Positions 20,196-24,533 of a stretch of 64,000 nt of DNA are shown here, one piece after another. The translations under genes were made by a program, and so were the position numbers. This DNA comes from Escherichia phage vb_EcoM-VR5. The stretch is taken from the sequence record NC_028881.1; one strand, 5' to 3'. How positions within the stretch are numbered: position 1 is the stretch's first letter; each line of letters opens with the position of its first letter. The notes under the pieces are model-generated. The model worked only from the letters and a program-made list of their open reading frames with translations. It did no database searches and was not told the origin of the DNA.

Positions 20196-20582
20196 TTATT
20201 CTAACGTTAACAAATACTTAGTTTGGTAAAAGACACCAGTGATGTCGTCCAAAGTCGATTGGATGGCCTTAGGAAGATTTTTGTAGATTTTATCAGATGC
20301 TTTAATAAGTTCATCAAGAAAATCTATAGGGTCTTTAGGCAGTTCTGAAGCAGACGGCAGTGATGCTTTATATTCTTTACCACTAAATCCTAGATACTGC
20401 TCACTGAACTGGTCTAGTGGTCCTTGAACTTCCGTATAATAGAAGTCGTATGCTTTGTGTCTTGCATAGCTTTTGGTTTCCAAATGGGCTGACTTAAAAT
20501 AGGCTAAAGAAACCAACAGCCAGCCAATATAAGAATCTACTTCAGTCCCTCGACTAAGTACGAAATCATTGAATTTCATCAT
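20196..20582 (-). CDS. hypothetical protein (128 aa)
   Basis: ORF immediately downstream of rI; short overlap with the rI stop. Confidence 0.45.
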   Translation of the reverse strand: MMKFNDFVLSRGTEVDSYIGWLLVSLAYFKSAHLETKSYARHKAYDFYYTEVQGPLDQFSEQYLGFSGKEYKASLPSASELPKDPIDFLDELIKASDKIYKNLPKAIQSTLDDITGVFYQTKYLLTLE

Positions 20583-20859
20583 CTACCTTCATTAGTTTAG
20601 CGTATCGTTCTCCGACCGCCCGACCTTCAATCGAGCAAGACTCTATTGTATTGCAATTTGAAAGTTTCCAAGAAGCAGTTACATAAGCCCAGTAGTCTTC
20701 AGAGGCCTTTACGCTAGGTTTACTCATTTGCGCATAAACTGGCATCGCACTACTAGCAAAGGCATCCATCAATTTAGGATCAGATTTGTTTGCTAGTGAA
20801 ACTGATGGGCTTAAACATCCGATCATAAGGATACAAGCCACTGTACGGAAAATACCCAT
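20566..20859 (-). CDS. rI: lysis-inhibition regulator RI-like protein
   Basis: 97 aa, same length as T4 RI; N-terminal signal-anchor; SNCNTIESCSIEGRAVGERYAKLM parallels T4 RI ...NDPCSSDFECIERGAEMAQSYARIM; located upstream of tk as in T4. Confidence 0.7.
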   Translation of the reverse strand: MGIFRTVACILMIGCLSPSVSLANKSDPKLMDAFASSAMPVYAQMSKPSVKASEDYWAYVTASWKLSNCNTIESCSIEGRAVGERYAKLMKVDDEIQ

Positions 20860-20951: not shown

Positions 20952-21230
20952 TTATAGCTTTTTAAGCTTACTACAATAAGCATAAAATACATCGTTAAAA
21001 TTTTCAGAAACCCATCCACGCTGTATAGGCGAAGTAATTGAAAGCAGATAATGTGCTTTAATTAGCTCCATCCCATTTTTATTAGGGCATTCTTTATTAT
21101 TAGCATTATACGTCGCTGCTACAACCTCTATCTCTCTTTTGTAAGCCGTATCATCCATGATAGGCAAAAGAACAATATAAGAAATAGCCACAGCTACCGC
21201 TAGAATTAAAATCTTTGAATTTAGGCCCAT
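20952..21230 (-). CDS. small membrane-anchored protein
   Basis: 92 aa; N-terminal hydrophobic helix (ILILAVAVAISYIVLLPI). Confidence 0.4.
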   Translation of the reverse strand: MGLNSKILILAVAVAISYIVLLPIMDDTAYKREIEVVAATYNANNKECPNKNGMELIKAHYLLSITSPIQRGWVSENFNDVFYAYCSKLKKL

Positions 21231-21237
21231 AGTACCC

Positions 21238-21810
21238 TCAACTCGTTATTTCTATCCAATGCTTCCTGCATAATGACACGTAAGAATCGTTGCCACCTAT
21301 AGAAACTTGGTCGCCATCCTTAATTGCGATACCATTTTGGATACGAGCTGTCATAGTAGCCTTACGTCCACAATGGCACACACCTTTGTACTCAACGAGT
21401 TTATCTGCTGTAGCTAATAATTCAGCAGAGCCAGGAAACAGTTTACCCTGAAAATCAGTTCTTAGACCGTAACACATGACCGGTATATTATAATTATCTA
21501 CTATCTTTGCCAATTGTTTTATTTGCAAAGGTTCTAAGAACTGTGCTTCATCCACAAATACGCAGTGGATATCTTTTTGAGATTCAGCCCAACGATAGAA
21601 CTCGTATAGGTCCATGTCTGGAGTCACTGCATTAGCCTCTTGGCTAATCCCTATACGAGACGAAATTCTATGGCTTGATTCTCTATTATCTATCGCAGGC
21701 TTTAAAAGGAGTACACCCATACCACGTTCTTTATAGTTATGGGCAGCCGTTAGCAATGAAGAGGTCTTCCCAGAATTCATCGCCGCATAGTGAAACATCA
21801 AACTTGCCAT
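21238..21810 (-). CDS. tk: thymidine kinase
   Basis: 190 aa; P-loop MNSGKTSSLL, VFVDEAQF, C-terminal zinc ligands CHCGRKA...SLCRKH; T4 Tk-like size and position. Confidence 0.93.
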   Translation of the reverse strand: MASLMFHYAAMNSGKTSSLLTAAHNYKERGMGVLLLKPAIDNRESSHRISSRIGISQEANAVTPDMDLYEFYRWAESQKDIHCVFVDEAQFLEPLQIKQLAKIVDNYNIPVMCYGLRTDFQGKLFPGSAELLATADKLVEYKGVCHCGRKATMTARIQNGIAIKDGDQVSIGGNDSYVSLCRKHWIEITS

Positions 21811-22544: not shown

Positions 22545-22727
22545 TTAAAGCGTATTCACGTAAGCAATTAATTCGTTTTCTTTCTCATCAAACTGTTCGG
22601 CGATTTTTTCGTAATCTTCAGCACTCACAGGACCCCATTCATCGTATGATTGCATTCCAGAATTCTCTTCTAGAAGCTCATGGATAAGCTCAAACAATTT
22701 ATCTTTTTGTTCTTTACTTAGGCTCAT
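22545..22727 (-). CDS. hypothetical small acidic protein
   Basis: 60 aa ORF. Confidence 0.35.
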   Translation of the reverse strand: MSLSKEQKDKLFELIHELLEENSGMQSYDEWGPVSAEDYEKIAEQFDEKENELIAYVNTL

Positions 22728-23169
22728 AATCTACCACCACTAAATTAATATCAGGAGTAAACAAATTAATCAATTGATAAACCTTGTCCCAATCACCGCC
22801 AGCAATACCACAGCCAATGCGAGGAATATAAATTCTCGGTTTAAACAAAAGACCCTTTGCAGTACGGTTTAATTCTATCATACAGTTTACTAAAGCACCA
22901 TAATCAAGATTAGGACCTGGTTCATATTGGGTATAAAGATTATAGCAAATTTGCCCATTATTGCCTGTGGCTTGAGTAAATGTTCCAAGTTTTGCAGAAT
23001 CACCCAAATAAGTGGCTTCTCTATCAATGGCAAGAATAGGTGAATAAGCCTTAGCCAATTGACCTGCTACGCCCGAACCCATAGTATGAAAACAGTTACA
23101 CCCATGAGCAACGTTATTACCTTGAAGAAACAGGGCGACGATATCGCCCTTAATATAATCAATAATCAT
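22714..23169 (-). CDS. macro-domain-like protein (putative ADP-ribose binding/processing)
   Basis: 151 aa; GDIVALFLQGNNVAHGCNCFHTMGSGVAGQLAKAY aligns to the macro-domain core (GDIT..VNAAN...GGGGVDGAI) as a divergent variant. Confidence 0.45.
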   Translation of the reverse strand: MIIDYIKGDIVALFLQGNNVAHGCNCFHTMGSGVAGQLAKAYSPILAIDREATYLGDSAKLGTFTQATGNNGQICYNLYTQYEPGPNLDYGALVNCMIELNRTAKGLLFKPRIYIPRIGCGIAGGDWDKVYQLINLFTPDINLVVVDYEPK

Positions 23170-23522
23170 TTAGAGTTTAGTCCTCGGTTGTAAGAGTCAA
23201 CGAGTCTGTCTACCATAGACGCGCACATTTCTTTATACTTTTTATCAGATGGAACACATTCAGTAACGTTTAGACGTTGCTCGTATCTTTTAGAAAGAGT
23301 TTTCTCTTTCATTCGACGATGCTCGACGTCATTCTGCCCATCTTTAAAAGCAGCTGTTATTTTTGAACTGAATTCAATAACACATTCAGTATTACTTGGA
23401 TGACAATAATCTTTTGCTGTACGGGTAGCATACTCGACAATTGAATTATTGGTATCATCAACCTGTGACGCTAATACTCCCGGAGCAATCAACATAAGCG
23501 CTATAGTCATCTGTTTAATCAT
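23166..23522 (-). CDS. exported Cys-containing protein
   Basis: 118 aa; signal peptide MIKQMTIALMLIAPGVLAS; four Cys in the mature part. Confidence 0.45.
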   Translation of the reverse strand: MIKQMTIALMLIAPGVLASQVDDTNNSIVEYATRTAKDYCHPSNTECVIEFSSKITAAFKDGQNDVEHRRMKEKTLSKRYEQRLNVTECVPSDKKYKEMCASMVDRLVDSYNRGLNSK

Positions 23523-24062
23523 TTAATATACCGCCTCAAACATCTTTTTAGATTTTAGGTAATTGGCCTTTTCTAGAACTTCCGAAGCATATTTACTACC
23601 TGCTTTGGCATTCCAGCCCGCATTATAAGAAGCAATCGCTTTTCTCAGGTCACCTTTGTGAACATTAATCCAATACGACAGTTCAATGTAGGCCCAAGAG
23701 GCACTGTTCTGTCGGTTTTGGACCATACGAATTATTTCTTTATCCGACATCTTCCAACCTACCTGTTTAACACGACTTCTTAACGTAGGCAAGTAATTTT
23801 GGAACATGCCATAAGCATGGTGCTTATCTTTATTTAAACCTTGATTAATCCCAGCAGATGATTCCTGCCATAATAATCCGGCCATTATATATCCTAATCC
23901 TTTTTGATTAGGGGTTTCTTTGAACTTTCCCGACTTTTGGTATTGTTCACCGAAAGCATACGCGTAATGTAAATTATCGAGTTGTTCATTACTGAAAGTA
24001 GGCTCTACGCTATAGGCAGACATACTAACTGTCAATAGTAAAGTGGCTAATACTTTTTTCAT
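23523..24062 (-). CDS. exported lytic-transglycosylase-like protein (SLT-type)
   Basis: 179 aa; signal peptide MKKVLATLLLTVSMSAYS; LLWQESSAG...AYGMFQ resembles the SLT catalytic E-S and GLMQ motifs. Confidence 0.45.
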   Translation of the reverse strand: MKKVLATLLLTVSMSAYSVEPTFSNEQLDNLHYAYAFGEQYQKSGKFKETPNQKGLGYIMAGLLWQESSAGINQGLNKDKHHAYGMFQNYLPTLRSRVKQVGWKMSDKEIIRMVQNRQNSASWAYIELSYWINVHKGDLRKAIASYNAGWNAKAGSKYASEVLEKANYLKSKKMFEAVY

Positions 24063-24074
24063 GAGACCTCATTA

Positions 24075-24533
24075 TTAAAGATAGATTACTTTCGTGCTAG
24101 TTTTACCTTCTAAACGTTTAGAGTTAACAAATGCCATACGACATTTTAATGAATATCCTTTATCAGGATGTTTACGATCTACAGTCATACCTAACCATAA
24201 GGTTTTATCGGTAATCTCGAGACGCAGTGGACGATACACTTTACCTGGGACAATTTCAGATTCTACATCAGGCAGAGGTTCCTGGATTAAAAATTCATGG
24301 ATTTCTTTAACATGGTTATGGAGTTGCTTGAATAAAGCAAAAACGTATTTTTCGTCAATTTCACGTTGGATAGCACGGTCCAATAGGTGATTAGAGTACT
24401 TAATAAAGAAAGCTGGGACTCCACTCTTAATGGCGGCTTTTTTGATGGATGTATTCAGTTCACGAAATTCGGTTTCGAACTGACGACGTAATTTGTTGCG
24501 GCGGATGAATACTTCTGAATTAATTTCTGACAT
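24075..24533 (-). CDS. regB: RegB site-specific endoribonuclease
   Basis: 152 aa; EVFIRRNKLRRQFETEFRELN...HLLDRAIQREIDEKYVF... is collinear with T4 RegB (153 aa). Confidence 0.85.
   Translation of the reverse strand: MSEINSEVFIRRNKLRRQFETEFRELNTSIKKAAIKSGVPAFFIKYSNHLLDRAIQREIDEKYVFALFKQLHNHVKEIHEFLIQEPLPDVESEIVPGKVYRPLRLEITDKTLWLGMTVDRKHPDKGYSLKCRMAFVNSKRLEGKTSTKVIYL

Follow-up and report, generated by a model that had tools for sequence, protein, structure and literature searches.

We analyzed a 64,000-nt stretch of the genome of Escherichia phage vb_EcoM-VR5 (NC_028881.1; the whole stretch is hereafter called the window) and found that its interval 22545-24062 carries, on the minus strand, four tightly packed genes that are the orthologues of the phage T4 early-region genes tk.2, tk.4 (adfM), vs and vs.1. 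These genes probably make up two functionally separate units, one being the anti-DarTG2 macrodomain protein AdfM and the other the presumably exported, lytic-transglycosylase-like Vs.1 together with Vs. The gene identities are not new, as all four are known, named T4 genes, and the function of the macrodomain gene was already published in 2025. The residual interest lies in the glutamine-type active site of the T4-type AdfM and in the paradoxical localization of Vs.

The closest relatives of the window are the Dhaka-type T4-like phages JS98, JS10, Bp7 and IME341, with approximately 91-99% DNA identity across the region. The window Tk.4 aligned with T4 Tk.4 over its full length (53% identity over 153 columns, E 7e-64), and Vs and Vs.1 were 45% (E 6e-31) and 67% (E 6e-90) identical to their T4 counterparts, respectively. 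None of the 151-, 118- and 179-aa open reading frames (ORFs) is a chance ORF: each has a T4 orthologue in synteny and many homologues (288 clusters for Tk.4, 27 for Vs and at least 100 for Vs.1). The order vs.1-vs-tk.4-tk.2 is that of the annotated T4 genome, apart from tk.3, which in T4 separates tk.4 from tk.2; the 60-aa ORF was considered as a candidate tk.3, to which it has no similarity, and is tk.2. The stop codon of vs.1 directly abuts the start codon of vs (TAA followed by ATG), the vs stop and the tk.4 start overlap (ATGA), and the last 14 nt of tk.4 are shared with the start of tk.2, a packing that fits coupled translation. An earlier, database-free reading of this stretch (the original prediction) had described three ORFs of 151, 118 and 179 aa between tk and regB, and all three were recovered, on the minus strand, with the lengths and motifs claimed, including NNVAHGCNCFHTMGSGVAGQ in the 151-aa ORF. 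It had overlooked the tk.2 orthologue within the same interval and a homing endonuclease gene that also lies between tk and these ORFs, and it had not recognized the 118-aa ORF as vs, an assignment that follows from the match to phrog_1256 and the identity to T4 Vs.

The Tk.4 protein matched the Pfam Macro family (PF01661) at 30.1 bits against a gathering threshold of 22, its residues 22-133 covering positions 2-117 of the 118 in the profile. As a single sequence it matched BT1257 (7.6e-9), Poa1p, the macrodomain of M. tuberculosis DarG (8e-4) and TARG1 in the PDB, and a profile of 33 family members matched BT1257 (2.8e-20), SCO6735 (1.3e-17), TARG1 (2.3e-17) and Poa1p (1e-13) as well as the DarG structures of M. 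tuberculosis (1.2e-9) and T. aquaticus (2.2e-8). The macrodomain call of the original prediction was thus borne out, the fold assignment being based on sequence profiles and the published T4 model. The only NCBIfam match was to DarG (NF048014), at 20.3 bits against a cut-off of 250 bits and over model positions 12-149 of 338; Tk.4 does not have the C-terminal DarT-binding domain of the DarG antitoxins. Since the DarG score is only 20 bits and covers the macro part alone, Tk.4 is, as judged from these matches, a stand-alone macrodomain of the ALC1-like (TARG1/DarG/SCO6735/Poa1p) clade rather than a DarG. That tk.4 resembles the A1pp "phosphatase" domain had been reported in 2006 (PMC1524935).

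Eighteen residues, Asn25 and Gln81 among them, were invariant in all 33 sequences of the family, and all 18 are common to the window and T4 proteins. Asn25 presumably corresponds to the Asn of the ADP-ribose site in DarG (N22) and in the AdfM of PhiKZ (N23), whose role in those proteins has been described (PMC13309987). In hidden Markov model (HMM) alignments, the segments LITKK of TARG1 and NMIGQH of SCO6735 aligned with NLYTQY of Tk.4, such that the catalytic Lys84 of TARG1 falls on Gln81 and its Asp125 on Ala123. The residues that mark a DarG/TARG1-type hydrolase are therefore replaced, while the Gln of a SCO6735-type enzyme is present at the catalytic-Lys position. TARG1 Lys84, DarG Lys80 and SCO6735 Gln85 are equivalent in position; SCO6735 and BT1257 both have Gln there, and Gln85 is essential in SCO6735, which hydrolyzes thymidine-linked ADP-ribose on DNA and de-modifies proteins too (PMC9967889). 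The AdfM of PhiKZ retains the Lys (K78; PMC13309987). With Gln81 at a position where PhiKZ AdfM keeps Lys, the T4-type AdfM is best described as a SCO6735-type (Gln) enzyme.

In a T4 transposon screen on a DarTG2-expressing host, tk.4 was the single significant hit, and a clean tk.4 knockout sensitized T4 to DarTG2, the gene being renamed adfM for anti-DarT factor Macrodomain (bioRxiv 10.1101/2025.11.20.689424). An AdfM of a PhiKZ-like phage, named independently, removes ADP-ribose from DarT2-modified DNA in vitro (PMC13309987). The window Tk.4 can safely be presumed, from its sequence, to have the same function as T4 AdfM. In the mechanism that we propose, Tk.4/AdfM would act in the cytoplasm, where it would most likely bind the ADP-ribose that host DarT2 puts on thymidine in single-stranded phage DNA and hydrolyze the ADP-ribose-thymidine linkage, with a water molecule positioned by Gln81, in SCO6735-type chemistry, instead of by the Lys of DarG. 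This removal of ADP-ribose would free replication and so defeat DarTG2 in T4 and, by transfer, in the window phage. The original prediction had suggested that the macrodomain protein could reverse ADP-ribosylation-based host defense or the phage's own Alt/Mod modifications. The defense part is supported with respect to DarTG2, against which the T4 orthologue is required; we found no evidence for a role against Thoeris or on Alt/Mod modifications.

Codons 7-13 of tk.4 (23132-23150, minus strand) also contain a terminator-like element in which a T-run comes after a G+C-rich hairpin (AGGGCGATATCGTCGCCCT GTTTCTT), and the stem is present in T4 tk.4 as well (AGGGCGATATTGTCGCCCT); it may merely reflect conserved KGDIVAL codons. 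A scan for consensus promoters and terminators gave site counts equal to the shuffled expectation and so no usable signal.

Vs.1 is predicted, from its sequence and modeled fold, to be a periplasmic lytic transglycosylase of the GH23/SLT family-1 type. Among 44 homologues, down to approximately 41% identity, residues E67, S69, G85, Q88, Y146, N147, G149 and Y158 were invariant, and S68 and V162 were conserved in at least 90%; the motifs ES, GxxQ, (A/S)YNxG and Y-x3-V correspond to motifs I-IV of family-1 lytic transglycosylases and place Vs.1 in that family. Pfam SLT (PF01464) was matched at E<=0.01 by 38 of the 44 (best 1.3e-7). When the AlphaFold2 (AF2) model of Vs.1, which had a predicted local distance difference test (pLDDT) score of 87.6, was searched with Foldseek, the top PDB matches were all of GH23 type (Ralstonia GH23 chitinase, MltD, goose-type lysozymes, Slt and Slt70), with probabilities of 0.99-1.00 for the top 19 and 0.90-0.91 for E. 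coli Slt70, and template modeling (TM) scores of 0.40-0.53. A weak profile alignment placed E67 on the catalytic Glu of salmon g-type lysozyme (SRES). No second acidic residue after the catalytic Glu is conserved among the 44 homologues, which is why Vs.1 appears to lean towards a transglycosylase rather than a hydrolase, although this is not decisive. The marginal resemblance of vs.1 to SLT had been noted in 2006 (PMC1524935), and our literature search found no paper giving vs.1 a role.

Signal peptides were assessed with a home-made rule, which asks for a basic n-region, then an h-region of 9 or more hydrophobic residues without charge, and for small residues at positions -3 and -1. The rule was passed by five of the 85 long ORFs of the window, the clear cases being RI, a known periplasmic protein, Vs and Vs.1. 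All 44 Vs.1 homologues show this architecture, with a hydrophobic core 11-17 residues long, and the homologues in Felix-O1-like and Vi1-like phages likewise have both the signal peptide and the catalytic motif residues. The exported SLT-like enzyme of the original prediction is thus supported by its motifs, its GH23 fold and a conserved predicted signal peptide. As its sequence and fold suggest, Vs.1 would be exported via Sec and cleave glycan strands in the periplasm with Glu67; it would remodel the peptidoglycan of the infected cell rather than bring about end-stage lysis. In the Felix-O1-like Salmonella phage FO1a, gp3 (locus L005, 1501-2049) is a Vs.1 homologue with a signal peptide that lies immediately downstream of rIIA-rIIB, a further association of the Vs.1 enzyme with genes of the rapid-lysis (r) class.

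The 118-aa ORF belongs to phrog_1256/PF26829, "valyl-tRNA synthetase modifier" (ValRS_modifier), and its homologues carry PF26829. A canonical signal peptide was found in 25 of 27 Vs homologues, and the two exceptions look like truncated start calls. The 22 N-terminal residues are less conserved than the rest of the protein (0.56 vs 0.76), as one would expect of a targeting signal but not of a binding surface. Four Cys residues, C40, C47, C89 and C100, are invariant in the homologues. AF2 modeled Vs as a four-helix bundle (pLDDT 78; helices 23-39, 45-68, 73-89 and 94-115) with a low-confidence N-terminus, in which one Cys pair brackets the helix1-2 loop and the other the helix3-4 loop, at spacings that vary (C-x5-6-C and C-x9-11-C); in this model the arrangement would be typical of hairpin-stapling disulfides. 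Two distant homologues retain the signal and the Cys residues, and one of them (P0251) carries LSGC, the lipobox of a lipoprotein. In Acinetobacter phage Konradin, the Vs.1 and Vs homologues had independently been assigned a "putative periplasmic secretion signal" by the GenBank annotators. The Vs family is narrow: an exhaustive profile search for relatives of Vs outside phages, covering 1.84 billion representatives, returned eight proteins that were of phage origin or fragments apart from one artefact, a 3694-aa protein (P0248, E 9e-11) that was rejected as a relative since its match consists of 17 identical low-scoring repeats without Cys. Fold searches of Vs gave no functional lead, and a sequence search for solved structures gave no significant match. 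Two variants were also seen: the Vs of Escherichia phage vB_EcoM_005 (P0005; 85 aa) has lost the first Cys pair and helix 2 through an internal deletion, and P0250 (80 aa) has the C-terminal half of a T4-type Vs fused to an unrelated N-terminus, which suggests that some phages can do without the gene or are losing it.

Vs.1 and Vs look like a pair in several respects. The vs.1 stop codon overlaps or abuts the vs start codon in the window, in T4, in two divergent metagenomic T4-like phages (loci L002 and L003) and in Konradin. In the T4 transposon data (bioRxiv 10.1101/2025.11.20.689424, Extended Data Table 6 among other tables), vs and vs.1 alone among their neighbors had counts approximately 10-fold lower after liquid growth, with 26.6 and 22.6 reads per site after liquid LB, respectively, against 178.6 for regB, 289.6 for tk.4 and 652.1 for vs.3. 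In M9, the log2 fold change (log2FC) was -2.19 for vs (adjusted p 0) and -0.87 for vs.1 (p 0.0055, adjusted 0.155), and on the clinical isolate CFE299 it was -1.20 for vs.1 (adjusted p 0.015) and -1.04 for vs (not significant). The main-text passages searched contain no mention of vs.1. The original prediction had proposed a partner for the enzyme; the stop/start coupling, the conserved adjacency and the fitness signature common to both genes in T4 make this plausible, but the partner is vs, whose annotation as a modifier of the cytoplasmic valyl-tRNA synthetase conflicts with export. In the explanation that we favor, Vs would be translated in coupling with Vs.1 and would likewise be exported, as a small bundle of four helices held together by two disulfides, to act with or on Vs.1.

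In Konradin (locus L004, 1474-3320), vs.1, vs, phrog_4957, phrog_6298 and rI are five consecutive genes annotated as secreted, and in the window phrog_6298 adjoins rI at 2 kb from the vs/vs.1 pair. This suggests an ancestral contiguous envelope/lysis-inhibition module that tk and the tk.x genes later broke up. In more distant T4-like phages (L002 4724-5143, L003 778-1185 and L004 2321-2746), vs is directly followed, with a stop/start overlap, by the gene of a third protein predicted to be exported (phrog_4957; approximately 135-141 aa, two conserved Cys residues), which the window and T4 do not have. We also considered the macrodomain gene and the exported pair as a single three-gene system. 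The vs.1-vs locus of Konradin adjoins rI and has no macrodomain gene annotated in the locus fetched; because the two are separable there and have unrelated phenotypes in T4, we regard them as independent units.

Several points weigh against the explanation given so far. For AdfM, the removal of ADP-ribose from DNA by the T4 protein was only inferred, as something that "seems likely", in the preprint (bioRxiv 10.1101/2025.11.20.689424), and Tk.4 has neither the catalytic Lys of DarG/TARG1 nor the Asp of TARG1. It is conceivable, if improbable, that the substrate of Tk.4 is not DarT2-modified DNA and is instead ADP-ribose-1''-phosphate, O-acetyl-ADP-ribose, or proteins or RNAs that the phage's own Alt, ModA or ModB have ADP-ribosylated, protection from DarTG2 being secondary. 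The closest solved relatives include Poa1p, an ADP-ribose-1''-phosphate phosphatase, and TARG1/OARD1, which acts on proteins and O-acetyl-ADP-ribose; the protein de-modification by SCO6735 (PMC9967889) points to other substrates, and databases name the family "phosphatase". However, tk.4 was the sole significant, knockout-confirmed hit on DarTG2, and its disruption had no fitness effect when DarTG2 was absent (log2FC -0.07 to +0.13 in the T4 transposon tables). For Vs.1, the window protein scores below the gathering threshold of Pfam SLT (18.5 vs 21.3 bits), the Foldseek E was only about 1e-2, and a sequence search for solved structures gave no significant match. The first and last of these would fit a catalytically inert or purely peptidoglycan-binding protein with a lysozyme fold, but we consider this very unlikely, as the catalytic Glu, G85/Q88 and Y146-N147-x-G149 are invariant down to approximately 41% identity and the homologues of other phage families keep the catalytic motif residues.

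Other objections concern the pairing and the localization of Vs. The shared fitness signature could in part be a polar effect of vs.1 insertions on vs, and the four Cys, which lie at one end of the predicted bundle, could bind metal in the cytoplasm instead of forming disulfides. In classical T4 work, vs is the gene for a small factor that binds and modifies the cytoplasmic valyl-tRNA synthetase (ValRS), a target that an exported, disulfide-bonded protein cannot reach, so that the predicted export of Vs conflicts with this role. The classical genetics and biochemistry are cited in PMC8076793. It is quite possible that Vs is the cytoplasmic, host-ValRS-binding factor of its annotation, with an N-terminus that is not used for export, or only for a minor fraction, and with vs.1 as a mere neighbor. 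Besides the classical evidence, the T4 delta-vs mutant has a nutrient-dependent, M9-specific defect (bioRxiv 10.1101/2025.11.20.689424); together with the log2FC of vs in M9, it is easily explained by a translation factor and suits a role in translation no less than one at the envelope. Vs.1-like genes occur in approximately 2,084 phage records and vs, by tblastn, in approximately 794, which indicates that Vs.1 does not need Vs. On the other hand, the n/h/c signal peptide is kept in nearly all Vs homologues despite sequence drift, with a lipobox in one, the four Cys are invariant, the positive-inside rule puts the helical domain outside the membrane, and His-tagged full-length Vs was insoluble in E. 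coli (PMC8076793). The computed mass of T4 Vs is 10.9-11.1 kDa for the mature form and 13.1 kDa for the precursor. The purified ValRS factor was reportedly approximately 10 kDa, which agrees better with a cleaved protein, although these sizes do not settle the cleavage question. We therefore put forward only tentatively, as a reading on the unlikely side, that Vs is exported and, with the co-translated periplasmic Vs.1 and next to the rI lysis-inhibition genes, forms an envelope-acting module of T4-like phages; the link to ValRS would then be indirect, or due to moonlighting of an unexported fraction, or the result of a historical mis-assignment of the ORF. That Vs might inhibit or regulate Vs.1 in the periplasm, in the manner of Ivy or T4 Spackle, keeping the muramidase harmless until lysis or a signal, seems to us rather doubtful. 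The coupled translation and conserved order of vs.1 then vs, the predicted export of both proteins, their common fitness signature and the contiguity of the Konradin pair with rI, a periplasmic lysis-inhibition sensor, in a run of five proteins annotated as secreted would all be in keeping with it.

The features of the locus and of its surroundings are collected in Table 1. The stop codon of the homing endonuclease gene overlaps the start of tk. Only two of 661 related phage records covered at least 80% of the query region, most close relatives covering approximately 79%, which is consistent with most close relatives being without this gene of approximately 740 bp. The homing endonuclease gene looks like a recent mobile insertion at the position of T4 tk.1.

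Table 1. Positions in the window of the genes and of the protein features discussed.
Feature	Position	Strand	Basis or remark
rI	20566-20859		
phrog_6298	20952-21230		adjoins rI
tk	21238-21810	-	Pfam TK 1e-56
GIY-YIG/NUMOD3 homing endonuclease, 245 aa	21798-22535	-	Pfam and PHROG profile matches
tk.2 orthologue, 60 aa, DUF7438	22545-22727	-	Pfam DUF7438 1.4e-16; phrog_653; 56% identity to T4 Tk.2
tk.4/adfM orthologue, 151 aa, macrodomain	22714-23169	-	Pfam Macro; 53% identity to T4 Tk.4
Gln81 codon (NLYTQ)	22927-22929	-	invariant 33/33; HMM alignment to catalytic position
Asn25 codon (HGCNC)	23095-23097	-	invariant 33/33
vs orthologue, 118 aa, 4 Cys	23166-23522	-	phrog_1256 4.3e-34; 45% identity to T4 Vs
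Vs signal peptide (predicted), aa 1-19, MIKQMTIALMLIAPGVLAS followed by Q	23466-23522	-	n/h/c test
vs.1 orthologue, 179 aa, WQESSAG...YGMFQ	23523-24062	-	phrog_600; 67% identity to T4 Vs.1
Glu67 codon (WQES), predicted catalytic acid of Vs.1	23862-23864	-	invariant
Vs.1 signal peptide (predicted), aa 1-18, MKKVLATLLLTVSMSAYS followed by V	24009-24062	-	n/h/c test
regB	24075-24533	-	Pfam REGB_T4 6e-69

Annotation of an AdfM-type anti-DarTG2 factor helps to predict which DarTG-bearing hosts the window phage infects, and the presence of Gln rather than Lys in the T4-type AdfM predicts a chemistry and an inhibitor sensitivity unlike those of DarG or PhiKZ AdfM. If Vs were truly periplasmic, a textbook T4 gene function would need to be revisited, and the role of a transglycosylase found in approximately 2,000 phage records would become experimentally approachable.

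Compared with known systems, the window Vs does not differ in kind from T4 Vs, with which it shares, besides the sequence identity, the four Cys, a signal-peptide-like N-terminus and the position between vs.1 and tk.4; it is the features of the family, an export signal and paired Cys, that do not match its textbook cytoplasmic function. T4 Spackle, which inhibits the gp5 lysozyme, and bacterial Ivy, which inhibits lytic transglycosylases, are small exported proteins that control a periplasmic muramidase and offer a possible model for Vs and Vs.1, by analogy only, as no similarity of sequence or fold to Vs was detected. The window Vs.1 resembles T4 Vs.1 and GH23/family-1 enzymes such as Slt70, MltD and the g-type lysozymes in its motifs and lysozyme-like fold, and it differs from Slt70, MltD and the like in being a minimal mature catalytic domain of 161 aa without accessory domains, encoded by a virulent phage at a T4 early-region position; it is also distinct from the endolysin E and the tail lysozyme gp5. 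The window Tk.4 and T4 Tk.4/AdfM are syntenic single-domain proteins of 151-155 aa with 53% identity and the 18 invariant residues in common, while the two phages belong to different genera, that of the window being JS98/Dhaka-like, and the DarTG2 protection phenotype is known from the T4 copy alone. SCO6735 (PDB 5E3B) and BT1257 (2FG1/2AFC), the best-scoring solved relatives, share with Tk.4 the Gln at the catalytic-Lys position and the PRIGxGxAGG phosphate loop, but they are cellular proteins and not phage counter-defense factors, and SCO6735 has a longer central loop (PMC9967889). The DarG macrodomain (PDB 5M3I, 5M31/5M3E) and PhiKZ gp104 AdfM are like Tk.4 in clade, in the active-site Asn and in the proposed undoing of DarT2; Tk.4 differs from DarG in lacking the DarT-binding domain at the C-terminus (Tk.4 has 151 aa, the DarG model 338 positions), and in Tk.4 Gln81 replaces the catalytic Lys80 of DarG and Lys78 of PhiKZ AdfM.

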